Source: a virus
Lineage: Duplodnaviria > Caudoviricetes
IMG/VR virus record: IMGVR_UViG_2690315746_000001
Span: 1-64,000 of that record
DNA: 64,000 bases
Reading direction: 5' to 3' (one strand)
Shown one piece after another: positions 1-63,411 of the stretch. The translations under genes were made by a program, and so were the position numbers. How positions within the stretch are numbered: position 1 is the first letter of the stretch; each line of letters opens with the position of its first letter. Below the pieces are notes generated by a model. It was not told the origin of the DNA and did not search any database. It saw nothing but the letters and a program-made list of their open reading frames with translations.

Positions 1-22
1 TCCCCACAGGAGCATATCCAAT

Positions 23-406
23 ATGGCCGCCAAGACCCCGACGACGTTGCAGATCCCGGTGCCCGGCGTCAGCAATCCCTACAGCGGCTCGCCGCTGTTC
101 GTCTTCACCGCCGGCATCGAGAACTACGAGAAGGTCCGGCTGAACCAGCAGATCGAGCTGGTGCTCGACGACGGCACGGTCCGCAAGGCCGCCGTCCATG
201 GCAAGACCGTCGCGCCGGTGATCGACCTCATCGTCGCCAGCGGCTCGCAGTCGATCCAGGCGGTCGGCCGCGTCTACTCGGCCTCGAGCCTGGTGCAGGT
301 CCTCACCGACCAGATCCCCGAGGAGGTCCTCGACGTGACCAAGCTCTACACCGCCCTCCAGGTGGTGCTGCAGGCCGAGACCCTGCCGTCGACCCCGACG
401 GTCTGA
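23..406 (+). CDS. Hypothetical protein
   Basis: AGGAG RBS at 8-12, GC3-rich codons; ATG lies inside a motif-A copy. Confidence 0.75.
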   Translation: MAAKTPTTLQIPVPGVSNPYSGSPLFVFTAGIENYEKVRLNQQIELVLDDGTVRKAAVHGKTVAPVIDLIVASGSQSIQAVGRVYSASSLVQVLTDQIPEEVLDVTKLYTALQVVLQAETLPSTPTV

Positions 407-435
407 TCTCCCCGCGAAAAATCGCCTGAAAAGAG

Positions 436-467
436 GGCCGCCAGTGCTTGCCGCTGGCGGCCTTTCT
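436..467 (+). terminator. Putative intrinsic terminator
   Basis: GGCCGCCAG/CTGGCGGCC stem followed by TTTCT. Confidence 0.55.
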
Positions 468-484
468 ATGTACGAAACGTACAC

Positions 485-943
485 ATGAGGAACACCGGCA
501 AGCCAACCGAGCGCATGTTCGAGGGCTCTATCGATGCTCTCGGCAAGCAAGGCTACTACTACCGCATCAAAGACGCAGCAGCGATCAAAGGACTGACGGG
601 TCGGGTTGGCACAGGCGTAGATGCGACGCCGTCCGACTACATCTGCGCGGTGAAGGGAACGACCTTCTTCTGCGAGGTGAAGTCGACCCAGCACGCAACC
701 CTGTTCGAGTTCAAGATGCTCCAGAAGGGGCAGAACGCGCACGGCAAGCGCATCATCGCAGCCGGCGGCAATTACCTGGTGATGATCCACCGGATGCTCA
801 CCGACGAGTGGTTCCTGGTCGCCAAGAAGACCCTCGTCGATCACGAGACCGCCACCGGCCGCAAGTCGATTACCTGGGAAGAGCTGGGGACGTTCAGATG
901 TACAGTGGAAAAGACCCCCGCGGGGACACGCCCACGGTGGTGA
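485..943 (+). CDS. RecU-like Holliday junction resolvase (PD-(D/E)XK nuclease)
   Basis: PSDY...FCEVKST catalytic motif, 152 aa. Confidence 0.7.
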   Translation: MRNTGKPTERMFEGSIDALGKQGYYYRIKDAAAIKGLTGRVGTGVDATPSDYICAVKGTTFFCEVKSTQHATLFEFKMLQKGQNAHGKRIIAAGGNYLVMIHRMLTDEWFLVAKKTLVDHETATGRKSITWEELGTFRCTVEKTPAGTRPRW

Positions 944-1554
944 AGGAGGAGATCGTCCAGATCGGCGCCTACGAGGTGCCTATGGACGTCGTCCACCGCA
1001 CCGCCTTCGCACCCCAACCGGGCGCGCCGATGTTCGACTACATGATCGACGTCGAGACCACCGGGACCAACCCGGAGGAGTGCGCGATCATCCAGATCGC
1101 CGCGGTGCGCTTCAACCGGCTCACCAAGGAGATCGACCACAAGATGTTCGATCGGTGCCTCGCGGTGCCGGACGGCCGCTACTGGTCGGAGAGCACTCGG
1201 GACTGGTGGATGGGCCAGCCGCACGTACTCGAGGGCATCATGCGGCGCATGGAGGACCCGGCGATCGTCATGCGGGCCTTCTTCGACTGGGTCTGCGAGG
1301 GCTCGAGCATCTGCCCGCGGGCGTTCTGGGGCAAGCCCACCACCTTCGACTTCAACTTCCTGAACAGCTACTTCCGCCAGTTCGGGCTGATGCAGCCGTT
1401 CCACTACCGCGAGGCGGTGGACCTCAACAGCTACCTGCTCGGCCGCGGCCACGAGAACCGGCGCGAGTTCTGGAACACCATCGAGCCAGTGGGCGACGCC
1501 CACAACGCGCTCCACGACTGCCTCTACCAGATCCGGGCGGTCTTCAATGCGTAG
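940..1554 (+). CDS. DEDDh 3'-5' exonuclease
   Basis: MIDVETTG, FD and HNALHDC motifs; start placed at the GTGA overlap with the upstream stop (listed ORF starts 448). Confidence 0.85.
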   Translation: MKEEIVQIGAYEVPMDVVHRTAFAPQPGAPMFDYMIDVETTGTNPEECAIIQIAAVRFNRLTKEIDHKMFDRCLAVPDGRYWSESTRDWWMGQPHVLEGIMRRMEDPAIVMRAFFDWVCEGSSICPRAFWGKPTTFDFNFLNSYFRQFGLMQPFHYREAVDLNSYLLGRGHENRREFWNTIEPVGDAHNALHDCLYQIRAVFNA

Positions 1555-1795
1555 GCGCGCCTTCCTGGGCCTGCTGGGCGGCCTGGCGGCGACGCCGGTG
1601 GTCGCCCGGCTGCCGGAGCTGCCGGCGCCCCCGCCGGCCGGCCCCCGGATCACCGCCGGCTGGATCTCGGCCGAGGACATCGTCCGCAACAGCATCTGCG
1701 CCCCGAAGCTCCGCGTCTCGGTGCCGAACCCCCTCAACGGCCCTCCCACCATCCTCGAGGACCTGCCTCATGAACCGTCCCCGTCTTCTCGGTGA
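1547..1795 (+). CDS. Small protein with twin-arginine-like N-terminal signal
   Basis: MRRRAFLGLLGGLAATPVVA; overlaps both neighbouring genes. Confidence 0.55.
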   Translation: MRRRAFLGLLGGLAATPVVARLPELPAPPPAGPRITAGWISAEDIVRNSICAPKLRVSVPNPLNGPPTILEDLPHEPSPSSR

Positions 1796-2768
1796 CCCCC
1801 ACCTGGGGCGCCGCTTCAACAAGGGCATCCCGGTCGAGCGCCGCGGCGAGCGCGAGCTGCTGGTGCTCCAGCAGTTCAAGGCCGAGCTGACCGCGGCGGC
1901 GGCCGACCGCGTCGAAACGCACATCTGCCTGGGCGATCTCTTCGACAAGCCGCAGGTCGACTACGCGACCCTGATCCACGCGGCCTGCATCTACCGGGAC
2001 GCTGCCTCGAACTCGCCGGGCACCACCTTCTACATCATCCAGGGCAACCACGACGACAGCCGCGACCTCGCCGAGGTCACGGCCTGGGACGTGTTCCAGG
2101 GCCTGATCGTCACCAGCCCCAACATCGTCTGCGTGACCGAGCCGATGATCGTGCCGGACCTCGGCGCAGCTCTCTTCCCCTGGAAGCCGGACGAGACTGC
2201 AGTCGAGATGGTGGGGCGGGTAGCCATGGGCGGCCTTTACGGGGTCAAGCTGACCACGGCCTACGGCCATTGGGACGTCGATCCCCGGTCGGCCTCCCAC
2301 AACCTGATCCCGACCAAGGAGCTGGCGGCGCTCGGCATCACCAAGGCCTACACCGGGCACGTCCATCTTCCCTCAATATTGAAACGAGATGGTATCGAGG
2401 TGGAAGTAATAGGCTCGATGCAGCCCTACGCCCAAGGCGAGGACGGCGGCCAGGGCCCGGTGCGGTACGTCACCCTCTCAGCCGACGACCAGCTCCTCTA
2501 CTCGGCCGGCGCCATGCTCAAGGACTGCTGCGTCCGGGTGATCCTCAAGCCGGGCGAGAGCTGGGAGGGGCCGATCCCCGAGTGCCGGTCCTGGGACATC
2601 CAGCGAGCCCGCCCGGTCGACGCCGAGGCGCCGGCCGACGTCTCGATGGAGGGCTTCGACACCATGGCGGTGACCCTCCGAGCGCTCGACGACCACGAGA
2701 TCACCCCGACCGTCCGACAGCAGATCGACGGCAAGATCGCGGAGACCTTCGGCCGTGAGCACGTCTGA
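1770..2768 (+). CDS. Mre11/SbcD-like metallophosphoesterase nuclease
   Basis: GDPHLG, LGDLFD, GNHD and GHVH motifs; next to a Rad50-like ATPase. Confidence 0.9.
   Translation: MNRPRLLGDPHLGRRFNKGIPVERRGERELLVLQQFKAELTAAAADRVETHICLGDLFDKPQVDYATLIHAACIYRDAASNSPGTTFYIIQGNHDDSRDLAEVTAWDVFQGLIVTSPNIVCVTEPMIVPDLGAALFPWKPDETAVEMVGRVAMGGLYGVKLTTAYGHWDVDPRSASHNLIPTKELAALGITKAYTGHVHLPSILKRDGIEVEVIGSMQPYAQGEDGGQGPVRYVTLSADDQLLYSAGAMLKDCCVRVILKPGESWEGPIPECRSWDIQRARPVDAEAPADVSMEGFDTMAVTLRALDDHEITPTVRQQIDGKIAETFGREHV
2370..2407. repeat. 11-bp-period array (par-type motif D) inside the Mre11-like CDS
   Basis: CCCTC AATATT GAAAC GAGATG GTATC GAGGTG GAAGT; forces rare codons ATA, TTG, CGA, GTA. Confidence 0.65.
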
Positions 2769-3042
2769 GAAGGGCAAGTTCTACCTCACCGGGCTCGGGC
2801 TCCTGATGCGGGGCGTGACGTTCACGCCCCAGGAGCGCGCCATCCTCAACTACCTCTGCGCCGAGGCGGCGAAGAGCGACGCGGCCTACTGGGACGCGGT
2901 GACCGGCATCAAGCCAGGAAGCGACCTCTGGCACGCCATCGAGGGTCTGAAGAAGACCCTCCGCAGTCTCGGCAGACAGAACATCTTGCAGGCCCACTAT
3001 GATCGAGCAGCTGACGTTCACGGTCCGGTTCCCGCCCACTGA
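2755..3042 (+). CDS. Hypothetical protein
   Basis: Fills the gap between nuclease and ATPase genes; typical codon usage. Confidence 0.6.
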   Translation: MSTSEKGKFYLTGLGLLMRGVTFTPQERAILNYLCAEAAKSDAAYWDAVTGIKPGSDLWHAIEGLKKTLRSLGRQNILQAHYDRAADVHGPVPAH

Positions 3043-4924
3043 TCACTACCCGCTGGGGCGCGCCTTCGACCGCACCCTTGACTTCTCCGCCGGCATGACG
3101 GCGATCACCGGCGCCAACGAGGCCGGCAAGACGCTCGTCCTCGAGATGATCGAGTTCCTGCTCTTCGGCTCGGCCGCGCTGCGCGGCAAGGCCGAGGACT
3201 ACAAGGCCATGAAGGCCTCCGGCATCGTGCTCATCCGGGGCCAGCGCTACCGGATCGAGCGCACCACGCGCAACGCGGCGTTGCAGCTCGAGGGCGAGAC
3301 CCTGGCGGTCGGCACCAAGCCGGTCAACGCGCGCATCCTCCAGATCCTCGGCTACGGCCTCGACGTCTTCCGGGTCGCCAACGTCGCCAACCAGGGCGAC
3401 GCCGAGCGGCTGTCGAAGATGAAGCCGACCGAGCGCAAGGCGATGGTCGACAAGCTGATCGGCGCCGACCAGCTCGAGGCGGTCGCGAACTGGTGCGGCG
3501 ACCAGGCGCTCGGGGTCACCCGGGAGATCGCCGGTCTCGAGACCGGGCTCGCCGAGCCCCGGGAGCCGGCGGAGCCGGCCGATTACGGCCCGGCGAACGA
3601 GCTGCAGGATCTGGTGCGCGAGCTGCGCGCCGCGCGCGACCGCGCCGTCGAACTGCGGGCCTTCCTCGCCAACCCGCCGACCGTGCCGGTGCTCGGCGAG
3701 GCGCCCACCAGCCTCACCCTCGAGGCCCTGGACCGGGCCGATCAGGTGCTCGGCCTGCGCACCTACGACTTCGACCTCGAGGTCGTGACGGCGCAGCACG
3801 ACGCCTACGACCTGTGGAAGGAGCGGCAGGCCTTCGTCCACCGCGCCTTCCCGCAGCCGACGCTCACCCAGGAGCAGGTCGACGCCGAGCGCCGCCGGCA
3901 GGGGCTCAACGACGACCTCAAGCGCCTGCGCAAGAGCCCGGTGCTGACGTGCCCGTGTGGGAAGCCGTTCACCACGGCCGACGCGGAGATCGCCCGCATC
4001 GAGACCGAGCTGGCCGAGATCCCGGTGCCGGAGGGGCTCTTCGACCTCGACATCGAGGCCCGGGCGCTGCGCACCTGGTCGAAGCCGGAGGTACAGGCCG
4101 AGTGGCAGCGGCTGGCCGCCGTGCCGCAGACCGACGCACCGGAGCACAGCCCGAGCGAGGCCAAGGGCGCCGTCCACGTCAACGAGGTCCGGGAGGCCTT
4201 GGCGGCGCTCGGCCTCGCCGGCTGCTCCCGGGCCGAGATCCGCACGCTGGCGGCCGGTGTGCGGGCCCACCAGGCCACGGCGGCGGCGGTTGCCAGCGCC
4301 CAGGCGCGCCGCGACGAGTGGGACCAGCGTGCCGCGGTCGCCCGCACCCAGCTCGAGGAGCTGGAGGACTTCGAGCAGCTGCCGGCGCTCGAGGCCCGGC
4401 TCGGCCAGGCGCAGGTCTACGAGGCGCAGCTCGAGGCCTACACCGCGGCCCGGGCCGAGTGGGACGCCAAGCAGGCGCGCCTCGCCGAACTGCGCGACGA
4501 GCAGACCTCCTGGCGGAACGGCAAGGCCGCCATGAACGAGGTCCGCCAGGACACCAAGACCTACCTCGCGCCCGCGCTCTCGCGCGTCGCCTCGCACATG
4601 CTGGCCGAGATGACCGGCGGCCAGCGCGGGCGGATCGTGGTCGACGAGGACTTCGAGATCCAGGTCGACGGCCAGCCGCTCAACACCCTGTCGGGCTCCG
4701 GCAAGGTGTGCGCGAACCTCGCCGTCCGCCTGGGACTGGGGCGCATCCTGACCAACGGCGTCTTCCCCGTCTTCATGGGGGACGAGATGGATGCGTCCAT
4801 GGACGCGGACCGGGCCGGGCACCTCCACGACGCGCTGTGCGCGCTCGAGGGCAAGCTCCGCCAGATCCTCATCATCACCCACAAGACCCCCGCCTGCCCG
4901 CGGGTCATCAAGCTGGAGCACTGA
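2999..4924 (+). CDS. Rad50/SbcC-like ABC ATPase
   Basis: Walker A GANEAGKT, coiled coil with central CPCG hook, LSGSG signature, Walker B FMGDEMD, ITH switch. Confidence 0.9.
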   Translation: MIEQLTFTVRFPPTDHYPLGRAFDRTLDFSAGMTAITGANEAGKTLVLEMIEFLLFGSAALRGKAEDYKAMKASGIVLIRGQRYRIERTTRNAALQLEGETLAVGTKPVNARILQILGYGLDVFRVANVANQGDAERLSKMKPTERKAMVDKLIGADQLEAVANWCGDQALGVTREIAGLETGLAEPREPAEPADYGPANELQDLVRELRAARDRAVELRAFLANPPTVPVLGEAPTSLTLEALDRADQVLGLRTYDFDLEVVTAQHDAYDLWKERQAFVHRAFPQPTLTQEQVDAERRRQGLNDDLKRLRKSPVLTCPCGKPFTTADAEIARIETELAEIPVPEGLFDLDIEARALRTWSKPEVQAEWQRLAAVPQTDAPEHSPSEAKGAVHVNEVREALAALGLAGCSRAEIRTLAAGVRAHQATAAAVASAQARRDEWDQRAAVARTQLEELEDFEQLPALEARLGQAQVYEAQLEAYTAARAEWDAKQARLAELRDEQTSWRNGKAAMNEVRQDTKTYLAPALSRVASHMLAEMTGGQRGRIVVDEDFEIQVDGQPLNTLSGSGKVCANLAVRLGLGRILTNGVFPVFMGDEMDASMDADRAGHLHDALCALEGKLRQILIITHKTPACPRVIKLEH

Positions 4925-4925
4925 G

Positions 4926-7098: not shown

Positions 7099-7128
7099 GC
7101 CCGCCATATCGGATATGGCGGGCTTTCT
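7099..7128 (+). terminator. Hairpin terminator whose stem contains motif A
   Basis: GCCCGCCATAT-CGG-ATATGGCGGGC followed by TTTCT. Confidence 0.65.
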
Positions 7129-10175: not shown

Positions 10176-10547
10176 CTACCGCTCGACCCTCATGCTCAAA
10201 GCGAGGCCGAAGCTCTCAAGGATCTCGACAACCTCGGCCTCGTTCTTTGCCTCCTCAATCTGGATGTTGACCTTCATCCGAGCGATCTCCAGCTCGCGGC
10301 TCTGCTCCGCCATATTGGATATGACGGTTGCCATCTCGCGAGGCGTGAGGCCGCGCAGCTCGGCCTCCTGCTCGATCATCAGCGAGGGCTCGTCGGCCAG
10401 GACGCGCTTGGCCTCCTGGAGCTTGAGCACGTACATGGCGCGCAGCGTCGGCTGCGTGCCGTCGCTCTCGGCGATCCCGACGAAGTGGGCCTGAACGGTC
10501 CGCTTCGCGACCTCGCGGACCTGGGCAAGCGGGGGGCCGAAGATCAT
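10176..10547 (-). CDS. Putative tail fibre assembly chaperone
   Basis: YxxKxxEA...EAELRG...IE pattern; downstream of tail tip gene; ATGA overlap. Confidence 0.6.
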   Translation of the reverse strand: MIFGPPLAQVREVAKRTVQAHFVGIAESDGTQPTLRAMYVLKLQEAKRVLADEPSLMIEQEAELRGLTPREMATVISNMAEQSRELEIARMKVNIQIEEAKNEAEVVEILESFGLALSMRVER

Positions 10548-10996
10548 GCCGTCACCGTGAGCGTGAGGGTGAAGGCCTGGGCTGGGAACGCCTCGCCCTT
10601 GATGGTGTAGGTGCCCGGGATCGTGAAGCCGACACTGAACGGGCCGCCCGGATGCTCGTACTCGACGCTGACCGGACCGTCGAAGCGCAGGGTGCAGGCC
10701 GGCAGCTCGAAGGCGGGAGCCTCCCCGCCGACCGGCGCCTCGAGCGCCGCCGGCAGGTCCAGCACCGGTCGTGGGACGATCACCGTGCCGTCGAACCACT
10801 CCGTGTCGCGGTCCGGTAGGACGTTGATCAGGATGCGCTCACCGGCGCGCTGCTGCGCCTCGATGATGGCGAGACCCATCTTTCCATCTTCCGTGAACCT
10901 GCCGCCCTGGTCGTACTTCATGAAGGGCACGATCTGGAAGAGCCGCGGATCGGGCTCCGCGGCTGCAGGCATAGGTAGGTCGATGATCTCGCTCAC
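10544..10996 (-). CDS. Tail-associated hypothetical protein
   Basis: Coupled to the giant tail gene. Confidence 0.65.
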   Translation of the reverse strand: MSEIIDLPMPAAAEPDPRLFQIVPFMKYDQGGRFTEDGKMGLAIIEAQQRAGERILINVLPDRDTEWFDGTVIVPRPVLDLPAALEAPVGGEAPAFELPACTLRFDGPVSVEYEHPGGPFSVGFTIPGTYTIKGEAFPAQAFTLTLTVTA

Positions 10997-49942: not shown

Positions 49943-49980
49943 GTTTCAATCTCGCATCAATATTGATGCGAGATTGCTTC
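49943..49980. repeat. 11-bp-period array containing a perfect 30-bp palindrome (49947-49976)
   Basis: GTTTC AATCTC GCATC AATATT GATGC GAGATT GCTTC immediately after the RHH gene stop. Confidence 0.75.
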
Positions 49981-50711: not shown

Positions 50712-51551
50712 ATGAAGACAATGGCCGTTCGCACCGCTAACCCTGCCCTGACCTCTGACGCTGTTGCTAAGATCGGGTTCGACGCCCTGGTGGGCGCTGA
50801 GAACTACAAAATCCACGCCTACAGCGCCTTTACCCTGCTATTCATGATGAATAGTGGTGTGGACCCGAAGCGGCTTCGGGCTAACCTCGCGGTGCGCGCC
50901 GCAGAGACGGGCGTTATCGCCGAAAATACCTGGCAGTCCTACGTCAAGGGCGTGGAGACGGCAGCCGACAAGTTCTCGACGCACCTGGCGTCGGACCCCG
51001 AGTTCCTGACCATACGGGATATGGGGCCGGAGGATGCGGTCGAGGCGGTGCGCCGGCTGTATGAGGCGGTCAACGTGGTGTCCGGGTCGGACATCCGGGA
51101 GTGGTCCAAGCTCGAAGGTTTCGAGCCCCTGGACAAGGCCGGGCTCAAGGCCAAGCGGGCGGCGGAAGCCAAGGCGCGCAAGCTCGCCGCTCAGAAGGCG
51201 GAAGCCGATGCGTTCTTCGCCAAGGCCCCTTGGGCCGGTGCGGAGGCGGAAGCCGGTGCGGGCGAGGCGGCCCCGGCGGACCCGATGGCGGCCCTGGCTG
51301 CCCTCCTCTCCACCCTGGACGAGGCATCCACCCTCAAGGCACTAGAGGCGGTCAACGCCCGGCTCGCGACCATGGCGAAGGCCAAGGCGGCGGCCCCGGC
51401 CCCCACCGTCGCCCCGGTCCTGGCGGACGACGCCACGCCGCACCCGCTTTCGGCCCTTGGCCGGGTCGTGCCGGCGAAGCTCAAGGGCGATGCCCTGGAC
51501 AGCGCCGCGATGGCGGCCAAGCCCCCGGTGCGCCCGAACAAGGCGGCCTAG
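50712..51551 (+). CDS. Hypothetical early protein, Ala-rich C-terminus
   Basis: 279-aa ORF bracketed by motif-A copies. Confidence 0.7.
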   Translation: MKTMAVRTANPALTSDAVAKIGFDALVGAENYKIHAYSAFTLLFMMNSGVDPKRLRANLAVRAAETGVIAENTWQSYVKGVETAADKFSTHLASDPEFLTIRDMGPEDAVEAVRRLYEAVNVVSGSDIREWSKLEGFEPLDKAGLKAKRAAEAKARKLAAQKAEADAFFAKAPWAGAEAEAGAGEAAPADPMAALAALLSTLDEASTLKALEAVNARLATMAKAKAAAPAPTVAPVLADDATPHPLSALGRVVPAKLKGDALDSAAMAAKPPVRPNKAA

Positions 51552-51754
51552 GGCCCCGCACCGGGCGCCATATTCGAATATGGCGCCCAACCCCGCCAGG
51601 GCCCGCCAGGGCCGGCCCTGGCCCCCGTCCAGCCCCTCGCGCCTACCGGCGCGCCCATCGCCGCCCACGGGCCGCCTGGGCGCCCCTGTATGCGTGCCCG
51701 GTGCGCGTACCTGCGCCGGTCCCCTCCACCATATCCGAATATGGGAGCCACGAG

Positions 51755-52129
51755 ATGGCCCACGCCAATCCCGAGTTCGCGCTCGCCTGCCGCGCGCACC
51801 GTGATCCGCCGCTGCGCCACCAGACGCCGCCGCCCGCGACCCTGGGCCAGCTTCGCGCCCGGATGCGCCAGATCGGCGAGCTGATCGACATCGGCTATCC
51901 GGTCGCGCCCGATGAACGCGAGGCATATCGGATATGGCTCCAGGTGCGGCGCCAGGATCGCCGGCAGGCCGCGCGCGAGGCTCAGATCCGCGACGCCACC
52001 GCCGAGCCACGCGGCGGGATGCACGGCGCCGATAAGCGCGGTGAGCGGTTCGCCGAGCCCAAGCGCCGGCTGCCGGCCGACGTGCAGGCCGGCCGCGTGA
52101 AGCTCCGGCGCGGCACGCTCACGCGATGA
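51755..52129 (+). CDS. Hypothetical protein (MAHANPEFA...)
   Basis: GGAG RBS next to motif A. Confidence 0.5.
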   Translation: MAHANPEFALACRAHRDPPLRHQTPPPATLGQLRARMRQIGELIDIGYPVAPDEREAYRIWLQVRRQDRRQAAREAQIRDATAEPRGGMHGADKRGERFAEPKRRLPADVQAGRVKLRRGTLTR

Positions 52130-52413
52130 TCGTGGGTCGAACGCGGAGGCGGCCGACGCCGCCACCACACTGGTTCTGGGCGATCGGCCCACCATGACCC
52201 GCACCGGCTTTGCGGTCCCGGTGCGGGGCCACGATCCGTGGTGGGCCGGGCTTTGGGTCCCGGCCGCCATATCGAATATGGGAGACGCGCGATGCAGTTC
52301 TGGTTCTGGTTCATGGCCTGGTTGGGCGCCTGGTGCGCGCTCGCGGAGTGGCTGCTTCCGGCCGTGCCGGGGTCGTTCTGAGCCCGGGGCCCTCTGTACG
52401 TTTCGTGCATGAA

Positions 52414-52735: not shown

Positions 52736-53341
52736 ATGAAACGCCTCGACGACCTGCCCCGCCACCTCCGGTCCAAGATCCGCCTGGAGCCGGCCGACGC
52801 ACCGGAGACCGAAGCGTGCTGGATCTGGACGGGCTCGGCCCAGAAGCCGCGCCGGCGCCTGCGCCCGTATGCGCCGATCGAGAACGAGAACCCCCGCGTG
52901 CGCCCGCGCCACTTCGCCGGGAGCTTCGTGAACGACCGCGAGACGCCCATGGTGCGCGATCCCAGCCTCGGCTACGCCGTCGCCGCGCACCGGGTGACGT
53001 ATGCGGCTGCGACCGACCGCACGACCGCGAGCCTGCCGCGCCTGTCGCGCTGCTCCTGCGATCGGTGCGTGAGCCCGCACCACGTCCACGAGCTTGACGA
53101 GGTGTCGCCCCGTTCGCGTGGCCGCACCCGCGGAGGCATCGTCGCCCCCGAGCCCGAGGTCAACGGCGCCCCGGTGCCCAGTGCCAAGACCTGGGATCTC
53201 CTCACCGCCGAGGACGGGCCCATGATCGAGGTGGGCGTGGATGCCGCCTGTGCTGAAGTGGGCCTGCCTCCGGGCTCGATCACGCCCGCGATGTGGGACC
53301 GCTTCGTGAAGTGGTCGCTCGCGCGCGACGGGGCCGGCTGA
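52736..53341 (+). CDS. Degenerate HNH-fold protein
   Basis: CWIWTG...AHRVTY...CSCDRCVSPHH; GAGGAG RBS. Confidence 0.65.
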   Translation: MKRLDDLPRHLRSKIRLEPADAPETEACWIWTGSAQKPRRRLRPYAPIENENPRVRPRHFAGSFVNDRETPMVRDPSLGYAVAAHRVTYAAATDRTTASLPRLSRCSCDRCVSPHHVHELDEVSPRSRGRTRGGIVAPEPEVNGAPVPSAKTWDLLTAEDGPMIEVGVDAACAEVGLPPGSITPAMWDRFVKWSLARDGAG

Positions 53342-53728
53342 CCCGGCCATATCCGATATGGCTTGGCCGCGTAACGCTGCGGTAATCTTCAACCACGGCG
53401 TGAGCCGCCCGCCCGGTACGAAGCGGACACCAACCCCGATCGCGGGTGTCCGCCTCCTGACCCAAACGATGAATGATTGGTGAATGGGCAGGCCGAAAAC
53501 GGCCGCAGGTCTGGTGAATAAGTGTTCATGGGACTGTGCATGTGTCCCACAAAGGCACACATATCTCCGAACGACCGCGGGCTGCCGCGCACACCGGCCC
53601 CTGGTATCCGTACAGCCGCGGATGTACGGTTCGTGCAGAAAGTTGCGCTGAACCACTACGTTCGGGTTGCGTACCCATCCAGATATGGGTATGTCCGCCA
53701 CCTCCCCAGCAAGCAGAGGAGCAATCGA

Positions 53729-54145
53729 ATGGCGGACAGCCATGTCGACCGCCTGCGCGCCATCTACGATGCGCTCGCGACCGCGGCGCCCGGGATCTCC
53801 CACGACGAGTACCGGGCGTTCCTGCACGTCGCCGACCACCCGGGCGCGAGCCAGCGCGAGGTGCAGGACGCCCTCGGCATCCCGCAGTCGAGCGCGAGCC
53901 GGCACCTGGCCAACCTCAACGGATCGGGCTTCGGCCTGGTCGATGCGGAAGCCTGCCTCGGCAAGCGCACCAATCTCCGGCTGTCGCCCAAGGGCCGGCA
54001 GCTGCTCGCCCAGCTGGCGCTGATCCTGGGGTGCTTCGTGGCCGCCCACTGCAGCTTGCTCGACGACATCGACTGCAGCACGCCGTCGCCCCCGGGCTAC
54101 GACCGCTGCGCCGACCCGGCGACCTTCTCCTGCGACCTGAGCTGA
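53729..54145 (+). CDS. MarR-like winged-helix regulator
   Basis: FLHVADHPGASQREVQDALGIPQSSASRHL...RLSPKGR; GAGGAG RBS. Confidence 0.8.
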   Translation: MADSHVDRLRAIYDALATAAPGISHDEYRAFLHVADHPGASQREVQDALGIPQSSASRHLANLNGSGFGLVDAEACLGKRTNLRLSPKGRQLLAQLALILGCFVAAHCSLLDDIDCSTPSPPGYDRCADPATFSCDLS

Positions 54146-54320
54146 GCCAGGTCATCCACAACCGCGACGCAACCCAGGGTGCCCTCGCCCCGTCGTTGAC
54201 GTAAACCAGAACGAAATGAGAACATCCGCGGCAACAACCCGTTGTCGGCCCGGGTGTGTCGCAACCAGGCGCCCGGCCCTCGCTGGCCGGCGGCCATATC
54301 CAATATGATGGGGTCTCGAG

Positions 54321-54692
54321 ATGACGACGCCGAGCGTGAACAGCATCCTCACCGGCATGGCCGACACGCTCGGCGTCCCAGCGCGGTGGACGAAGGGCTT
54401 CATGGCTCGCGACGCCGAGGGCCACCAGGTCGAGCCAACGAGCCCGCAGGCCGCCTGCTGGTGCATCTACGGCTCGATGGAGCTGGAGCTGGTCCGCCAG
54501 GGCGCCCCAGACGGCCTGCGGGTCACGGTCGAGGACGTGCTGCTCGACGTGGCGCGCGAGGAGCTGGATCGGCCGGCCCTGATGGAAGGCGGGCTCAGCC
54601 TCATCAACGACAGCCGCTACACCACGCACGAGGAGATGTGCGACCTGATCCAGCGCGGCATCCGCCGCGCTGCCACCGGCACTCCGAGCTAG
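54321..54692 (+). CDS. Phage hypothetical protein (WTKG...CWCIYG family)
   Basis: Recurrent phage motif W.KG..AR...A.CWC..G. Confidence 0.7.
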   Translation: MTTPSVNSILTGMADTLGVPARWTKGFMARDAEGHQVEPTSPQAACWCIYGSMELELVRQGAPDGLRVTVEDVLLDVAREELDRPALMEGGLSLINDSRYTTHEEMCDLIQRGIRRAATGTPS

Positions 54693-55432
54693 ACCTCGGC
54701 CATGGCCGACTTGAACGCCTTCCGGCGCACCAGCATCGCCGGCCAGATGTGCTCCAGGTGCTCGAGCAGGGCCTCGGGGTTGATCACGTCGACCCGCGCG
54801 ACGTCGCGCCGGATGAGGCCGCGGGTCTCGAGCCTGGCGAGCATCTCGGTGATGGAAGGCCGCCGCGCGCCCATGCGCTTGGCGATGAACGGCTGCGAGA
54901 AGGGCAGGGTCTTCTCGTTCGACACGTACCAGGCCCGCGTCAGGAACGAGATCAGCCTGTCCTCGGTCGCGAGGGCAACCGAGCCGCCCATCACCTCCCA
55001 GGCCTCCGTGAGCGCCAGGTCCGCGTACCGGCCGATGATCGCCCGCGACTTCGGGCACTCGTCCAGCAGCCGGCGCGCCGCCTGCGTGCTGCACTGGAAG
55101 GCCGGCGCGTCCAGCTCGACGACCGCCTGGTAGTTGCTCGGCACCTCGGAGAGCAGGGCAGGGAAGCCCACGATGTCCTCATCCCCGCACATCGCCGACT
55201 GGATCGCCTGCTTCTTCCAGTCCGAGACGGGGGACACCAGGATGGACACCAAGCCGTCGACCGGGAAGTAGATCAGCGACGGGCGAACGCCCGCATGTAT
55301 AATAAGCTGACCGGACTTTAGATGTACGCGCTCAATAAGATCAGCCCAGTCTTTGTTGACGCTTATCAGGGCCTGTAGAATAATATTGGTCCGGCCAGAT
55401 ATGTTGTACTTCTGTGCAAATTTGGTCATCAT
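54689..55432 (-). CDS. Crp/Fnr-family transcriptional regulator
   Basis: IYFPVDGLVS cNMP-fold; SQPFIAKRMGARRPSITEML..LE..GLI HTH; start approximate. Confidence 0.85.
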   Translation of the reverse strand: MMTKFAQKYNISGRTNIILQALISVNKDWADLIERVHLKSGQLIIHAGVRPSLIYFPVDGLVSILVSPVSDWKKQAIQSAMCGDEDIVGFPALLSEVPSNYQAVVELDAPAFQCSTQAARRLLDECPKSRAIIGRYADLALTEAWEVMGGSVALATEDRLISFLTRAWYVSNEKTLPFSQPFIAKRMGARRPSITEMLARLETRGLIRRDVARVDVINPEALLEHLEHIWPAMLVRRKAFKSAMAEV

Positions 55433-55837
55433 CTTGAGCCCCAGTGTAGGCTGCCTGCGCACCACCCCAGGGGCCGCGCTAGACAGTCATTCAAATCCTC
55501 GGTGTAGTTGCATTCGTCATATCCAATATGGCCGAGACGGGTGGTGGTTCAGACGCGGGGCGCATTCTGGGTCCCTGATCTTTGTCCGACACGGTGCGTT
55601 CGCACTCTGCCGAGTATCGCTAGTACGAGCCGTACACAACCCCAGTTGTCAAGCGGCTGTGCCGTCGAACTAGGGTGATTCGCTGAAAAATCATTCAGGC
55701 ACCTACTGCAAAGAGGCGCCTGTGCCAACACACCAGGCCATGTGCCTGGGCTGTGCCTGGGCATCATTGGATGTCCGATCCGTACAACTTTTCCACTAGC
55801 GTCGTTGTAACCAAAGGGTTAAATGGAGCCCTACCAC

Positions 55838-56301: not shown

Positions 56302-56353
56302 CCGTATTCGATATGGCTTCACGCTTGTTTCAATATTGAAGCGGGATTGAAAC
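56302..56353. promoter_or_regulatory. Composite site: motif A followed by 11-bp array
   Basis: CCGTATTCGATATGG then GCTTC ACGCTT GTTTC AATATT GAAGC GGGATT GAAAC, abutting ATG 56355. Confidence 0.7.
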
Positions 56354-56354
56354 G

Positions 56355-56758: not shown

Positions 56759-56934
56759 GCCTCATCACCGGGACCTACCGCGGGGTGCGCAAGCGCCTCC
56801 GGGGCGAGACCGCGATGCTCGAGCCGCGCCCGGGCGGCTGGGCCGCCCAGTTCGATCGCCTCCACCACCGCGAAGCCCATGGCTGGTGGTTCTTCCCCGC
56901 CGACGACTTCGAGGTCCACGTCCGCCAGCCATAA
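56755..56934 (+). CDS. 59-aa hypothetical protein MSLITGTYRG...HGWWFFPADDF
   Basis: ATGA overlap and GGAG RBS; below the ORF-track cutoff. Confidence 0.6.
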   Translation: MSLITGTYRGVRKRLRGETAMLEPRPGGWAAQFDRLHHREAHGWWFFPADDFEVHVRQP

Positions 56935-56980
56935 CCAATATGGCTGCCACGTTGTTTCAATATTGATACGAGGTTGAAAT
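56929..56980. promoter_or_regulatory. Composite site: motif A followed by 11-bp array
   Basis: CCATAACCAATATGG then GCTGC CACGTT GTTTC AATATT GATAC GAGGTT GAAAT, overlapping ATG 56979. Confidence 0.7.
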
Positions 56981-57659: not shown

Positions 57660-57673
57660 GAGGCATATCCGAT

Positions 57674-58132
57674 ATGGACAACTTCCTTCTCCCAGCTCAG
57701 CTGCAGATCTCGCTCGCTGAGCACGAGGCCCTCATCACGCTGCGCGACGCGCTGCGCGAGGAGCGACTGCCCAACGACTTCAAGTTCGACATGTCCTACG
57801 GCGCGTGCGGCGGTGACGGCTGCGGGACGGTCGGCTGCATCGGCGGCGCGGTGCGGCTCATGTGCCTGACCGGCAGCCAGCACGACATCGAGGGGCTCCA
57901 TGAGCCTTATCGCCACGACGTCCGCGCGGCCTTCAGCTACGTCGAGCGGTCCGAGCTTCACCCGACCCTCGCCCCGCTCTACTACCCGCACCCGGAGGGC
58001 AGCTACCCCCGGCCGCCCTTCAACATCTACACGCAGGCCGACGCGGCCCGGGCGATCACCAACTACCTGACCACCGGCAAGCCGGATTGGCTCAACGCCG
58101 CCAGCGAGACGCTGAAGCCCTACCTGCAGTAA
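57674..58132 (+). CDS. Hypothetical protein (F.M...CGTVGCIGG)
   Basis: ATG inside motif A, GAGG RBS. Confidence 0.7.
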   Translation: MDNFLLPAQLQISLAEHEALITLRDALREERLPNDFKFDMSYGACGGDGCGTVGCIGGAVRLMCLTGSQHDIEGLHEPYRHDVRAAFSYVERSELHPTLAPLYYPHPEGSYPRPPFNIYTQADAARAITNYLTTGKPDWLNAASETLKPYLQ

Positions 58133-58202
58133 CGACCCCGCACCGGGCGCTTTCGCGCGCCCGGATCACAGTGTTCGCTTCGTACATGAAAGCATATCCG
58201 AT

Positions 58203-58844
58203 ATGGCACGCACCCGCATCCTGGAGCGCGACGGCTTCCGCATGGGTCAGCGCGTCTTCCTCAAGCAGCCGACCATGGGCGGCACCGACGAGGACGACGA
58301 GGTCGTCTACCCGGCCGGCTCGCCGGGCCTGATCGCCGACATCGAGGACCTCGGCGGCAAGCAGGGCGTCAGCTTCACGGTCAGCATCGGGGAGATCACC
58401 AACAACTTCGACCAGGGCGACGGCCCGATCGGCAACTTCCTGTCGGCCACGCCCGTGCTGCCGGCGTTCGCCACCCTGATCGGCCTGACCCCGAAGCAGG
58501 TCGCCGACACGATCTGCACCGCGGTCGAGGGCGGCATCAGCTACTGGGCCCGGGGCTTCCACCTCGTCTCGCCCAACGAGGCCGCGCTCAAGGAGCGGCC
58601 CTGGTACGCGAGCGCCGCGCTCTACGACGGCCCGTTCACCATCAAGGTCGTGCAGGTGGACGAGCACAAGGAGGGCGCCGGCTGCGACGTCTTCCTGACA
58701 CCGGACAGCATCCGCCGCGGGCTCGCCTGGCTCGCCGCGAACAAGCCCGAGCGAATCGGCGAGATCATCGGTGAGACGGGCGACGCCTGCACCGCCGACG
58801 ACTTCATCCAGGCCTGCGTGTTCGGGGAGCTGATCTATGGCTGA
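58203..58844 (+). CDS. Hypothetical protein (EGGISYWA...Q..VFGELIYG)
   Basis: Recurrent phage C-terminal motif; ATG inside motif A. Confidence 0.75.
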   Translation: MARTRILERDGFRMGQRVFLKQPTMGGTDEDDEVVYPAGSPGLIADIEDLGGKQGVSFTVSIGEITNNFDQGDGPIGNFLSATPVLPAFATLIGLTPKQVADTICTAVEGGISYWARGFHLVSPNEAALKERPWYASAALYDGPFTIKVVQVDEHKEGAGCDVFLTPDSIRRGLAWLAANKPERIGEIIGETGDACTADDFIQACVFGELIYG

Positions 58845-59337: not shown

Positions 59338-59663
59338 CCCGAGCCCAGCCATATCCAATATGGCTGGGTTCCAGCCACCGCATGTGGATGGAGAGCACCG
59401 TGGCCAGCAAGATGTTCAAAGATGGCATCCGCCGTGACCTCGAAAACGAGGTTCGCCGCCGGTGGCCGGAGCGGGCCGGCGAACTTCGAGAGCAGCTTCG
59501 CCAGCAGCAGGTCGCACCGAAGGTCATTGCCGACAATATCCGGGCAACCGGCGGCACCCCGATTAGCTTCTACAAGGTTCTCGCCGACCTGATCGACTGC
59601 GGTTTCATCCCGGTCGACGCGCACCCCGAGCGGGCCAATCTCGGCGAGCCGGAGGTTTCGTGA
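59334..59663 (+). CDS. Hypothetical protein (start uncertain)
   Basis: Coupled ORF; motif-A hairpin in the 5' part. Confidence 0.5.
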   Translation: MTRAQPYPIWLGSSHRMWMESTVASKMFKDGIRRDLENEVRRRWPERAGELREQLRQQQVAPKVIADNIRATGGTPISFYKVLADLIDCGFIPVDAHPERANLGEPEVS

Positions 59664-60043
59664 GCGCCACCAAGGGCCGGCGCAGCCACGTCACCGTGCG
59701 GCTGCCCCGGGTCCTTCACCGGCGGCTGGCCGCGTGCGCGGCGGCGGCCGGCGTCGATCTCAACACCTGGATGAACCGCTGCCTGGAGGCTCACGCCATG
59801 AAGGATGACCCGCGTTTTCCGCCTACACCGGGCGCCGCCCAGGTGGTCGAGGAGGTGCAGGCGGCCTACGCCGCCGCCCAGCCCAGCCCCGAGCCGACCA
59901 AGGTCGAGCGTCTGGAGGAGACCATCCGTCTCCTGTCAGCATATGGCGAGGCCAAGTTTGGCGACGAGTGGTGGCCCGGGAACGCCCAGCCGCACCTCGG
60001 CGCGGAGCGCGGCGCTCGGCTCGAGCAGTTGCTCGATGAGTAA
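59660..60043 (+). CDS. Protein with HicB-like RHH DNA-binding N-terminus
   Basis: VTVRLPRVLHRRLAACAAAAGVDLNTWM. Confidence 0.7.
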   Translation: MSATKGRRSHVTVRLPRVLHRRLAACAAAAGVDLNTWMNRCLEAHAMKDDPRFPPTPGAAQVVEEVQAAYAAAQPSPEPTKVERLEETIRLLSAYGEAKFGDEWWPGNAQPHLGAERGARLEQLLDE

Positions 60044-60281
60044 CCGCCGCAACGGGCCCGTGAAGCGGGCCGCGATCCGGCTGCTGGCGGAGGAGCGGCG
60101 CCTGCCGCTCGCCGCGGCGGCGCACCGCTACGCGATGATGCCGATCCGGGCAAAAGTGGCGCTGTGCCGGCGCGTCGAGGCGTCCGGTAAAAAGGAAAAT
60201 TCGGCCTCCCGGAAGCCCGCGGCGGCAGCCAGATCAAATATGGCTTCGCCAACTCGTTGGTACGATTCTGGATCTGCATAG
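60036..60281 (+). CDS. Basic hypothetical protein
   Basis: Overlapping start MSNRRNGP. Confidence 0.4.
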   Translation: MSNRRNGPVKRAAIRLLAEERRLPLAAAAHRYAMMPIRAKVALCRRVEASGKKENSASRKPAAAARSNMASPTRWYDSGSA

Positions 60282-61750: not shown

Positions 61751-61810
61751 CAGGGAGGCCGCCGCAGGCATCCTCTGCGTCGAGCCACCACCAACACCCG
61801 GAGGGTGATC

Positions 61811-61897
61811 GTGAACCCGATGCAGGCTGCCCTCCTCGCCACGTTCCTCATCGGGACCCTCGTCGCGCTGGGCATCCGCGCGCGAACTCGCGTCTGA
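61811..61897 (+). CDS. 28-aa hydrophobic peptide MNPMQAALLATFLIGTLVALGIRARTRV
   Basis: GGAGG RBS; single TM with basic tail; flanked by two motif-B sites. Confidence 0.5.
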   Translation: MNPMQAALLATFLIGTLVALGIRARTRV

Positions 61898-61919
61898 ACC
61901 AGATTGTACGGAGCGTACC

Positions 61920-62216
61920 GTGCGCAGTCATCACGACATCCTCATCGCTGCCGAGCGCGGGCTCGCCAGCGGCCACACATTTCTCACCTCCCTCATGACC
62001 GAGATCGGCGTCGAGCGCGCCGGCACGCCCGGCTTCCGCGAGCTGGACCAGGTCATGACCGAGCGGGTCAGCGACGCCTTCGCGGAGCTGTACCCGGACC
62101 ACGTCGGCGTCGGGCTCCCCCACGCCGTTCGTCGCGGCATCCGGGCGCTGGGCCTCACCGGCGCCGAGGTCTCTGCCGCCGTCGCCCGCCGGGCCGTCGA
62201 GAATTGCCCGGCATGA
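61920..62216 (+). CDS. Hypothetical protein
   Basis: GGAG RBS inside motif B. Confidence 0.6.
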   Translation: MRSHHDILIAAERGLASGHTFLTSLMTEIGVERAGTPGFRELDQVMTERVSDAFAELYPDHVGVGLPHAVRRGIRALGLTGAEVSAAVARRAVENCPA

Positions 62217-62701
62217 CCGCCCTCAACCCCATCACCGCCCTGCGCCTGAAGCGCACGGCGTCTCGGAGAGCACCGCTCATGCCCGTTTCCCAGAAGCCGC
62301 GGATGAAGAAGCGCGAGGCCACCGGCCCGGCGCCGTACACCCTCGCCGGCACCCTGTTCTACGGCTTCTACGAGCAGGCCGCGCTGCGTAAGGCCGCCGG
62401 CCCGTCCATGGAGGACATGTTCCGCCGCCAGCGCACCGGCATGCCGCGCACCCGCCGCGACCTCTCCGGCCGGACCTACCACCCATGCGCGGGCGCGGAG
62501 AGCCGCGAGGCCAAGCGCCGGGCCCGCCAGGGCGTCCACCACGCCCAGCACCCGACCGTGGTCGCACGGTTCGGCGAGCTGGACGCCCGGGCGCGCGAGG
62601 CCAAGGAGGCCATCGCTCGCGTCGAGGGCGTCGACCGCTCGATGAAGAGCCGGATCGGCGCCGTCGCCGGCAAGCTCCTCGGTCGCAAGGGTGCCGCGTG
62701 A
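62213..62701 (+). CDS. Basic hypothetical protein (MTALNPIT...)
   Basis: ATGA coupling. Confidence 0.6.
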   Translation: MTALNPITALRLKRTASRRAPLMPVSQKPRMKKREATGPAPYTLAGTLFYGFYEQAALRKAAGPSMEDMFRRQRTGMPRTRRDLSGRTYHPCAGAESREAKRRARQGVHHAQHPTVVARFGELDARAREAKEAIARVEGVDRSMKSRIGAVAGKLLGRKGAA

Positions 62702-62862
62702 ACCACGACCAGGAGAAGCTGCTCAAGCGCGCCCAGGACGCGCTCGTCCAGCTCAATCACGGCGCCTGCGATGACGCGGCCGGCGTGATCCACGACCTCA
62801 TGAAGGAGGTCCGCCAGCTCCAGGACAAGCTGGAGCGCCTCGACGCGCCGGAGGTCGCATGA
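62698..62862 (+). CDS. Small hypothetical protein (MNHDQEKLL...)
   Basis: GTGA/ATGA coupling on both sides. Confidence 0.6.
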   Translation: MNHDQEKLLKRAQDALVQLNHGACDDAAGVIHDLMKEVRQLQDKLERLDAPEVA

Positions 62863-63167
62863 AGCTCGCCGATCTCGACGCCGCGACCGCGCTCCAGCGC
62901 GACCTGCAGCGCGCCCAGCACGACCTCGCCGAGCTGCAGAAGCTGGTCTGGTCCGACGAGGCCAAGCGGGCCCGGGCCGACAAGGGCCCGGACGAGGGCG
63001 TCAGCCTGTCGATCACCACCGTCCGGCTCGGCACCCTCTACCTGACGCTCGACCCGGACGACACGATCTTCCAGGCGATCGAGAACCGGCTCGAGATCCG
63101 CATCCGCGAGGCGGCCGAGAAGCTCCGGCGGCTCGGCGTCGAGGTCCCGCAGGACGTCGCGGCATGA
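62859..63167 (+). CDS. Hypothetical protein
   Basis: GGAGG RBS, coupling. Confidence 0.65.
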   Translation: MKLADLDAATALQRDLQRAQHDLAELQKLVWSDEAKRARADKGPDEGVSLSITTVRLGTLYLTLDPDDTIFQAIENRLEIRIREAAEKLRRLGVEVPQDVAA

Positions 63168-63355
63168 ACCAGGTCCTGCCCTGGCTGCCGTGGGTCTCGT
63201 TCGGCACCGCGACCGCCGCCCTGCTCCTGGCGCTCGTCGGGCTCGCATGCGGCGATCGCTCGGTGGCCGGCGAGCGCCTGCTCGCGGCCCTTCTCCTCGT
63301 CAGCGCCTGGCTCGCCGGCCTGGCGCTCATGCTGAACTTCTGCCCCCTCCCCTAA
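63164..63355 (+). CDS. Small two-TM membrane protein
   Basis: Two hydrophobic helices; ATGA coupling. Confidence 0.6.
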   Translation: MNQVLPWLPWVSFGTATAALLLALVGLACGDRSVAGERLLAALLLVSAWLAGLALMLNFCPLP

Positions 63356-63411
63356 CCCACTGCCACCCCGGCCATATCCGCTATGGCCGGGGCAACCCTC
63401 GAGGAACGACG

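Follow-up and report, generated by a model that had tools for sequence, protein, structure and literature searches.

Dispersed CCATAT palindromes at gene boundaries of a Methylobacterium phage-plasmid: a candidate operator system

We have studied a family of short palindromes, CCATAT-N3/4-ATATGG (motif A), in a tailed virus genome of the Caudoviricetes, IMG/VR record IMGVR_UViG_2690315746_000001. The record comprises 85,702 bp with 67.8% GC, and its first 64 kb is the stretch of DNA analyzed here, which we call the window; positions are given in window coordinates, and those beyond it in genome coordinates. A search of plasmid records gave 100% identity of the virus record to NZ_AP014707.1, the circular plasmid pMaq22A_3p of Methylobacterium aquaticum MA-22A, the coordinates of which are converted to those of the window by subtracting 1676. 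The element is a phage-plasmid, because the record is identical to this plasmid and holds a complete siphovirus genome together with ParA and a P4-family primase. The family to which it belongs appears to be so far unstudied. The available text of the M. aquaticum genome announcement names pMaq22A_3p only among five plasmids, and the word "phage" is absent from it.

Genes were called by a simple procedure based on GC content at third codon positions (GC3), giving 103 genes; these calls agree with the RefSeq table of the Prokaryotic Genome Annotation Pipeline (PGAP) in the two stretches compared. A Pfam scan covered 102 proteins (78 + 24), and a PHROG scan was also made. The minus strand between 7.6 and 43.4 kb encodes the terminase, portal, major head protein, tape measure, tail protein, GH108 lysin and holin. 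The plasmid functions are ParA, its small ribbon-helix-helix partner and a P4-family primase-helicase, and there are further genes for a family A DNA polymerase, a ligase, a ribonucleotide reductase, RIIA/RIIB-like proteins and regulators of the MarR, Crp/Fnr and Ros/MucR types. The early region contains a module of three genes on the plus strand, namely gene 51 (50721-51551, 276 amino acids), gene 52 (51755-52129, 124 amino acids) and gene 54 (52736-53341, 201 amino acids, with CWIWTG and C-x-C-x2-C motifs). It also contains a MarR-family gene (gene 55, 53729-54145, plus strand) and, antisense to the early genes, a Crp/Fnr-family gene (54689-55432, minus strand). The protein accessions are WP_145984801.1 for gene 51, WP_060851358.1 for gene 52, WP_060851359.1 for gene 54, WP_060851360.1 for the MarR-like protein and WP_145984802.1 for the Crp/Fnr-like protein.

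Motif A occurs 20 times in the window, seven copies being perfect and 13 having one mismatch, and a 21st copy with one mismatch lies beyond it at genome position 66423. A preliminary description of the window had listed the same 20 copies, and each is where it was placed. It had also supposed that so AT-rich a pattern should be essentially absent by chance. The supposition is borne out, with no match in 100 dinucleotide-preserving shuffles, and none at up to one mismatch in 20 second-order Markov simulations of the 85,702-bp genome, against 21 observed. As described earlier, 16 of the 20 copies lie between 50.6 and 63.4 kb, and the spacer is of either three or four nucleotides (nt); the count is 17 and three in the window (the 4-nt copies being those at 50682, 51568 and 51729), and 18 and three of 21 in the whole genome. 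Site centers are non-coding at 17 of 21 sites, compared with 8.5% of the genome (binomial p = 2.6e-15, GC3-based calls); using the PGAP genes the figures are 14 of 17 against 19.7% (p = 4.9e-8).

Six of the seven perfect copies are in the early region. That at 50682-50697 lies between divergent genes and precedes gene 51 by 23 nt. A second, at 51568-51583, is 16 nt past the stop codon of gene 51 within a GC-rich stem (51563-51588), and a third, at 51729-51744, is 10 nt upstream of the start of gene 52. The copy at 52267-52281 is intergenic by PGAP, between genes 52 and 54, and that at 53347-53361 is 5 nt past the stop of gene 54. The last of the six, at 59349-59363, is 11 nt past a stop codon within a GC stem at 59344-59368. 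The seventh perfect copy (7104-7118), 13 nt past a stop codon, caps a GC-rich stem (7099-7123), after which comes TTTCTCGTTCTT. In sequence this site looks like an intrinsic terminator, and the hairpin including its flanks has a calculated free energy of -25.7 kcal/mol.

The copies with one mismatch have equally varied surroundings. Three contain a start codon, which is the ATG of the right arm, in both the GC3-based and the PGAP calls, as the preliminary description had it: the site at 12-26 (GCATATCCAATATGG) with the start at 23 of gene 23-406, that at 57663-57677, which occupies a 14-nt intergenic gap, with the start at 57674, and that at 58192-58206 with the start at 58203. These three are among six sites in this genome that lie no more than 12 nt from a start codon. 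Several copies had been placed inside coding sequences, and there are three to four of these: 10310-10324 in the minus-strand gene 10176-10547, 51010-51024 in gene 51, 51923-51937 in gene 52 and, by PGAP only, 60229-60243 in the 3′ end of the hypothetical gene 60036-60281, the last being intergenic by the GC3-based calls. The site at 24081-24095 is 5 nt past the stop of an NlpC/P60 tail gene (24101-24616, minus strand). That at 54294-54308 is 12 nt upstream of the gene at 54321, and that at 55517-55531 is 85 nt upstream of the start (55432, minus strand) of the Crp/Fnr-like gene. The site at 56302-56316 stands in a 79-nt gap ahead of the gene at 56355 and is followed by TTGTTTCAATATTGAA, an element of a different palindrome family (motif C). 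The site at 56929-56943, which overlaps the stop of the gene ending at 56934 with the next start 35 nt on, is likewise followed by motif C. Finally, the site at 63372-63386 is 16 nt past a stop codon within a GC stem at 63366-63392.

The shape of the signal was examined by aligning 63 non-duplicate sites from this genome and its relatives, oriented by the local direction of transcription. The resulting logo is a two-fold symmetric 17-mer, G-CCATATC-N-GATATGG-C, with the information confined to these positions. The symmetry includes the C and G flanking the central base, as well as the G and C just outside the arms. The spacer is C-N-G in 39 of 71 three-nt sites, and most of the others differ from this on one side only. 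No conserved sequence was found within 40 nt on either side of the 63 sites, neither a -35-like element nor the flank of a mobile element, which argues against both a directional promoter and a mobile repeat. We accordingly ruled out a miniature inverted-repeat transposable element.

Neither does the signal favor a strand. In the sense orientation the central base of the 71 sites is C in 35, G in 33, A in two and T in one, and asymmetric spacer variants fall 16 against 11 in the two orientations. This genome taken alone has a spacer bias (CCR at 11-12 sites, YGG at two), which is gone across seven records; it is not general, because C and G are evenly represented over the 71 sites.

The preliminary description had preferred a hairpin to an operator in double-stranded DNA. 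According to this explanation, a protein of the element would read a 6-7 bp AU-rich stem with a loop of 2-4 nt, in mRNA or in transient single-stranded DNA, and so control the translation, processing, stability or termination of early transcripts. A loop would tolerate spacers of 2, 3 and 4 nt, all of which are found when relatives are included. The six sites close to start codons, three of them containing the codon, are placed as a translational operator might be, and in the distant relative L156 the start codon of gene 52 falls inside a site. The outer flanking pair, G-C here and A-T in L156, has changed in a way that preserves pairing. The GC stem extensions noted earlier also exist as described, with five extra pairs at 7104, 51568 and 59349, three at 56929 and six at 63372. 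They are confined to few sites, however: at least five extra pairs (five or six) are found at only five of the 74 sites across all records, compared with 0.24% of random positions, and four of these five are in this genome. The long-stem sites lie 11-16 nt past stop codons, and that at 7104 has a T-tract.

A further site of this kind is a two-mismatch yet perfectly palindromic variant, CCAGAT-CCG-ATCTGG, at genome 68179-68193, in which both arms are changed symmetrically. It lies within a GC-rich stem 14 nt past the RIIB-like gene. Several sites in this genome and in relatives have this change in one arm only (CCAGAT or ATCTGG).

The greater part of the comparative data nevertheless disfavors the hairpin. 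The core is weak as RNA, at -3.0 kcal/mol, falling to -1.1 kcal/mol for the GCAUAU variants over start codons, and a 6-bp RNA stem could not be closed by a 2-nt loop. The C-N-G spacer carries the symmetry into what would be the loop, and neither the loop nor the mismatched arm is strand-biased relative to transcription. Covariation of the stem, proposed earlier as a check, is not seen: there are seven two-mismatch sites in six records, and just one of them is compensatory. Orthologous sites retain changes that break pairs, the site past the NlpC/P60 gene having kept a single-arm mismatch of this kind in all five lineages. Judged by these alignments, the arms are conserved for sequence, not for pairing. 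There is no extra flanking pair, or only one, at 58 of the 74 sites, and the relatives mostly lack GC extensions. Start codons follow at distances as different as -4 nt and over 300 nt. Contigs from RNA libraries run continuously over the sites at 54294 and 55517, and a search of the 64-kb window with the Rfam 15 families at gathering score gave no match. A GC stem with a T-rich tail occurs only at 7104 here and at 77924 in the relative G006, so that motif A falls outside the definition of an intrinsic terminator; a consensus scan of 49.5-64 kb returned eight terminator-like matches with no motif A site among them. We consider that recognition as a hairpin is unlikely overall, while a hairpin component retains weaker support from the spacers of 2, 3 and 4 nt, from the few long GC stems 11-16 nt past stops and from the sites that overlap translation starts.

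We turn to the distribution of motif A outside this genome. Close relatives of the terminase are found in genomes of Methylobacterium jeotgali and Methylorubrum suomiense. Of the nine M. jeotgali matches at up to one mismatch, seven lie on one 21-kb phage contig (reversed-pattern control, one), and of the 18 in the M. suomiense genome 17 lie on an 84-kb phage contig (control, five). Perfect copies are present in four of 61 genomes of the genus and in none of the other 57; two of the four have eight and nine copies, all in related phage regions, and two have a single copy. The host chromosomes thus have no density of the motif comparable to that of the element, and these counts rule out the site of a host factor.

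In contrast to its rarity in host chromosomes, motif A is present in every related phage examined, often at syntenic positions. There are 12 sites in G001, seven in G002, and five each in G003 and G004, which are truncated records lacking the early region. L161 has seven sites in 3.8 kb, L162 five in 3.8 kb and L156 a total of 11. Sites are syntenic inside gene 20, 5 nt past the NlpC/P60 gene, and in a cluster of five to seven in and around genes 51-52, where the proteins at these positions are merely 40-60% identical. The position of the site at 10310 is kept in G001, G003 and G004 despite a different encoded central residue. The site at 24081 is kept in G001, G003, G004 and G006, each time with a single-arm mismatch, and that at 51923 has degenerate orthologous copies in G001 and G002. 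A scan of viral contigs for the exact 15-mer gave mostly single chance matches, G001 alone standing out among the matches listed, and a megablast comparison of 50-64 kb with a phage collection gave no match. The earlier characterization of the motif as non-random, element-specific, concentrated in the early region and putatively functional is upheld.

The copy at 24081 also opens a non-coding gap (23802-24100) in the tail gene block, the 300-nt length of which is kept in G001, G003, G004 and G006. The copy inside gene 51 encodes A-I-x-D-M, residues that vary little or not at all across 20 homologues. G001 and G006 have a second copy within gene 51, reading I-S-D-M in G001.

A distant relative, L156, in which the gene 52 homologue is 36% identical, has the same arms with a different spacing. 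The arms are 2 nt apart at 10 of its 11 sites, and this 2-nt center is CA or TG at 10 out of 10 sites, never CG or TA. The outer flanking pair is A..T rather than G..C. One site in L161 has a 4-nt spacer. Spacing is therefore nearly uniform inside a lineage and different across lineages, and this, together with the changed flanking pair, fits a protein of fixed geometry that has co-evolved with its sites better than it fits an indifferent loop.

Taking these observations together, we think it rather probable that motif A is a double-stranded DNA operator, with a full site of about 17 bp, for a dimeric, two-fold symmetric regulator encoded by the element. This reading is preferred because the signal is element-specific, intergenic, symmetric, conserved in sequence and indifferent to strand, as would be expected for the operators of a dimeric regulator with many sites. 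We infer double-stranded DNA as the recognized form, repression as the result of binding, and the identity of the binder. Five to seven sites cluster densely around the gene 51-52(-54) module, and further single sites occupy nearly all of the short gaps of the early block, lie over start codons and come just past stop codons. The bound protein would keep the early block under common control, most likely by repression in the plasmid-prophage state. A site at a promoter would act by promoter occlusion, while one between co-directional genes would block RNA polymerase as a roadblock, in the manner of a stoperator. The few sites nested at the apex of GC hairpins past stops may be operators that share a tiny intergenic space with terminator or stabilizer hairpins.

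Some indication of the state of the early block comes from RNA. The data are contigs of four small RNA sequencing runs (X1-X4; two samples from one study) that differ from the element by 0-1 letters in the early region. Contigs of 1.8-2.1 kb with a word depth of 126-182 bridge 53.6-55.66 kb, a stretch with two sites (54294 and 55517), the MarR-like and Crp/Fnr-like genes and gene 56. Over parA (48.9-50.3 kb) the contig depth is 55-101. Contigs on 56.2-59.8 kb, where there is a site in every gap, have a depth of 0.15-6. The depths would fit a silent early block with expressed regulators in the plasmid state. We count this as a weak hint, because contig depth is a poor measure of expression and contigs cannot show the ends of RNA. 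Contig breaks near the palindromes at 51556/51591 and 52284 are possible assembly artifacts and were not used.

A number of observations weigh against a dimeric operator. The spacer varies, with three 4-nt sites here, one in L161 and 2 nt in L156, and rigid dimers are usually intolerant of such variation. The invariable CA or TG at the center of the L156 sites is left unexplained by a simple symmetric contact. The five sites of 74 with at least five extra GC-rich pairs of unrelated sequence exceed the random figure, and the long-stem sites and the 68179 variant are positioned past stop codons as RNA 3′ hairpins would be. Several sites lie over a start codon or ribosome-binding region, the placement expected of a translational operator. 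The genes at 60.2-64 kb have sites yet show moderate contig depth. An apparent RNA 5′ end puts the site at 50682 near position +20 instead of within a -10/-35 region, and RNA-library contigs nonetheless cover gene 51. Furthermore, the binder has been narrowed only to candidates. Of these, the Crp/Fnr-like gene is not at its syntenic position in L156, and relatives lack a consistent site upstream of it.

The apparent RNA 5′ end arises from contigs that start at 50663 in three of the four runs, 19 nt before the site at 50682. The start is preceded by 15-26 letters that do not fit the element; in the one run shown they look like adapter sequence. No recognizable sigma-70-like -10/-35 pair lies near 50663, and a consensus promoter scan of 49.5-64 kb gave three sites against 1.2 expected, none of them at a motif A site. 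Just upstream of 50663 there is a direct repeat, ACTATGCC-CGG-ACTATGCC, at 50634-50651.

Motif A might itself be, or belong to, a promoter for a dedicated transcription machinery, for instance an N4-like hairpin promoter or a site for a sigma-like factor of the phage. Sites stand ahead of many early genes, and the promoters of the N4 virion polymerase resemble the geometry of a 6-bp stem with a 3-nt loop. The element also has a gene for a protein of 4079 amino acids (10993-23232, minus strand), a size that could suggest such a polymerase. However, this is a tail protein with gpJ-like FNIII-A, Phage-tail_3, fn3 and CBM_4_9 domains, which rule it out as an N4-like virion RNA polymerase; its homologue in G001 has 1756 amino acids only. 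The Pfam scan of 102 proteins returned neither an RNA polymerase nor a sigma family, so that the hairpin promoter suggested in the preliminary description lacks a polymerase gene that could use it. The two large unassigned proteins (711 and 574 amino acids) are RIIA/RIIB-like, this gene pair being at genome 64229-68164. The motif is symmetric and without a directional flank, it occurs also inside genes and directly past stops, and the single apparent RNA 5′ end is 19 nt upstream of a site. In addition, since three sites contain the start codon, a transcript beginning downstream of the stem would miss the gene. A role as a promoter is therefore very improbable indeed.

The dense cluster of sites raises a different explanation, in which motif A would bind a replication or maintenance protein. 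The cluster of five to seven sites at genes 51-52 would then be an origin or a center for pairing or handcuffing, with the dispersed copies titrating the initiator or doubling as transcriptional targets, like DnaA boxes. The element is a circular plasmid that encodes ParA, a ribbon-helix-helix partner and a P4-family primase-helicase, and in all seven lineages the densest cluster of sites is around and inside genes 51-52, where the in-gene sites encode conserved residues. There is a parallel in phage lambda, the origin of which lies inside gene O. The coverage of gene 51 by RNA-library contigs is also in keeping with such a function. But the sites of the cluster are 150-550 bp apart rather than forming a tight iteron array, and most copies are single, in the gaps of a 13-kb gene block, where an origin would have no need of them. 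The gene 51 protein is unlike known initiators (best Foldseek E = 0.3, best VIA Z = 5.2). As a centromere, a better candidate is another palindrome, TTTCAATATTGAAA, which flanks both parA and the ribbon-helix-helix gene. We regard this explanation as quite improbable.

If motif A is an operator, which protein binds it? The candidates, on the basis of sequence, are the Crp/Fnr-like regulator and a protein of the gene 51-52-54 module. The former has 247 amino acids, with a cNMP-binding domain and HTH_Crp_2. Its predicted recognition helix, RRPS[IV]TE, does not vary among orthologues sharing 33-41% identity, and each of the four lineages in which the early region is complete has the gene. A Crp/Fnr-type operator has two 5-bp half-sites 4-6 bp apart, with the gene for the dimer nearby. 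Motif A can be read in this form, as CCATA-N4/5/6-TATGG; a second palindrome of the element, TGTAC-N5-GTACA, fits the Crp/Fnr half-site pattern equally well.

The module of genes 51, 52 and 54 occurs together with the densest motif cluster in all seven lineages. The three genes are restricted to this phage group and have no Pfam family. AlphaFold predicts that the gene 51 protein, a candidate for the binder or its partner, is all-alpha (pLDDT, predicted local distance difference test, 79) and that the gene 52 protein is a helical hairpin whose tail, though disordered, is basic and conserved (pLDDT 76). Structural searches with the gene 51 and gene 52 proteins gave no significant match, the best Foldseek E values being 0.3 and 4.5 and the best VIA Z 5.2, which for gene 51 is in the chance range for helical proteins; rows with a sigma-factor fold (E 1-3) were not counted as evidence. 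For gene 54 the ESM Atlas yielded a weak HNH_3 lead only, in about 30% of the members of the second and third clusters. A Pfam search at E ≤ 5 with genes 47, 49, 50 and 54 and eight L156 proteins gave no matches.

Other regulators of the element are less suited. The MarR-like gene 55 and the MarR_2-like gene 70 were rejected as the universal binder, since the complete relative G002 lacks the two genes yet has seven motif A sites. Gene 50 was rejected because its product has a signal peptide and would be secreted. The ribbon-helix-helix protein of gene 49, beside ParA, is more likely to be tied to a different palindrome. There is also a Ros/MucR-family zinc-finger regulator at genome 81445-81807, a family that binds AT-rich DNA in Alphaproteobacteria.

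Motif A is not the only palindrome of the element. Motif B, TGTACG-N3-CGTACA, has 26 copies at up to one mismatch, nine of them perfect. In the window its 15-mers start at 469, 5901, 24629, 37044, 38380, 43468, 44197, 46924, 47884, 48786, 52395, 53623, 55622, 55772, 58172, 61737 and 61905, and nine more lie at genome 64-84 kb. Most are just upstream of genes outside the motif A block, several right after terminator-like hairpins. In relatives the core GTACG-N3-CGTAC is kept, with G..C instead of T..A as the outer pair, and G006 has 25 copies. Motif B shares the 6-3-6 geometry of motif A and sometimes stands 1-9 nt ahead of a motif A copy. It directly precedes motif A at 58172/58192 (the two sites, 58172-58186 and 58192-58206, being 5 nt apart) and at genome 66407/66423, an arrangement also seen in G001 and G006 at positions that are orthologous or comparable.

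A hairpin or cruciform, in RNA or single-stranded DNA with a loop of 2-4 nt, might be read by a protein of the gene 51-52-54 module alongside a motif B system; this specific arrangement is more doubtful still than the general hairpin explanation. Its reader could possibly be the gene 52 protein with its basic tail, or that of gene 54 with its HNH_3-like lead.

A third family, motif C, is built around TTTCAATATTGAAA / TCAATATTGA. Elements of the TTTCAATATTGAAA type are found at 48290-48330, 48890-48925, 49945-49980, 56325-56350 and 56955-56975; they flank parA and the ribbon-helix-helix gene 49, and also follow the motif A sites at 56302 and 56929. From its position this family is a candidate for a centromere or a ParG-type operator, and a parS or centromere function for motif A is unlikely given that the palindrome flanking parA is a different one. 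The genome looks to be partitioned among three operator-like words.

Two other features of the window lie away from these palindromes. The tape measure, with an SLT domain, is a protein of 2188 amino acids (25583-32149, minus strand), and an SbcC/SbcD-like pair is encoded at 1770-4924.

How does a many-site operator of this kind compare with known systems? The stoperators of cluster A mycobacteriophages comprise more than 20 copies of a short phage-specific motif in promoters and short intergenic spaces, and are proposed to halt both initiation and elongation (PMC9283540). They are described in the same paper as asymmetric 13-mers, bound by a monomeric two-domain repressor, with an orientation that follows transcription. 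For the present comparison the two repressor domains of the L5/Bxb1-type system were taken as a helix-turn-helix and a Stoperator domain. Motif A is similar in its 21 copies and its largely non-coding centers (17 of 21 against 8.5%). It is unlike the stoperators in being a symmetric 15-17-mer (a 17-mer in the 63-site logo) and in having no orientation bias (C 35 and G 33 of 71; variants 16 versus 11), and the two systems are unrelated in phage, host phylum and candidate regulators. The regulators named in the Pfam and PHROG scans were of the MarR, Crp/Fnr, HTH_3 and Ros/MucR types only, no search for a stoperator repressor as such having been made. Because asymmetry and orientation fail to carry over, we class motif A as a variant and not a member of the stoperator kind. 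The stoperator-like site that the preliminary description had kept as its fallback is thus closer to our best explanation than the hairpin it preferred, the distribution being alike but the asymmetry and orientation being lacking.

In site shape and distribution the closest parallel is provided by the conserved inverted repeats (CIRs) of Streptomyces phage phiC31, a temperate phage of high GC content. These are bound by the phage repressor, are about 17 bp in length and have many intergenic copies in the early region. The differences are in sequence, phage lineage and host (Alphaproteobacteria here, Actinomycetota for phiC31), in the plasmid-prophage state, and in the presence of the second and third palindrome families. 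Dispersed operators are also known from plasmids. In the KorA/KorB system of RK2 and the C1 operators of P1, one regulator acts at 7-20 scattered operators and so links several blocks, replication and partition among them. Motif A resembles the KorA/KorB sites in being a short palindrome, whereas the P1 operators are asymmetric. KorB is the ParB of its plasmid; in the present element, by contrast, another palindrome flanks parA, and the partner of ParA is a small ribbon-helix-helix protein. Homologues of these regulators did not come to light in the element, no search aimed at them having been made.

The promoters of the N4 virion RNA polymerase, of which there are three, have a stem of 5-7 bp and a 3-nt loop upstream of early genes. 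In motif A the arms are comparable, at 6 bp, and 18 of 21 copies have a 3-nt spacer. It departs from them in having about 20 sites in place of three, no strand specificity or conserved flank, overlaps with start codons and positions after stops, and no virion RNA polymerase family in the Pfam scan of 102 proteins.

The conclusion that emerges is that the motif A system is most likely a known kind of control with a new sequence in a new host. A single 17-bp word stands at nearly every boundary of the early block, with motif B at most other gene boundaries and the third palindrome at the partition genes, so that the three words offer a ready regulon map of the element and a test bed for the silencing of lytic genes by plasmid-prophages in Alphaproteobacteria. 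If the hairpin explanation were true, its reader would instead gate translation, processing or termination at about 20 intergenic points of a phage-plasmid, and would represent a new class of nucleic-acid hairpin regulator. For the operator that we favor, the identity of the binder would tell whether multi-site silencing of the stoperator type has arisen independently with a symmetric, dimer-type site, and the binder would supply orthogonal operator-repressor parts for Methylobacterium, a genus used in biotechnology.

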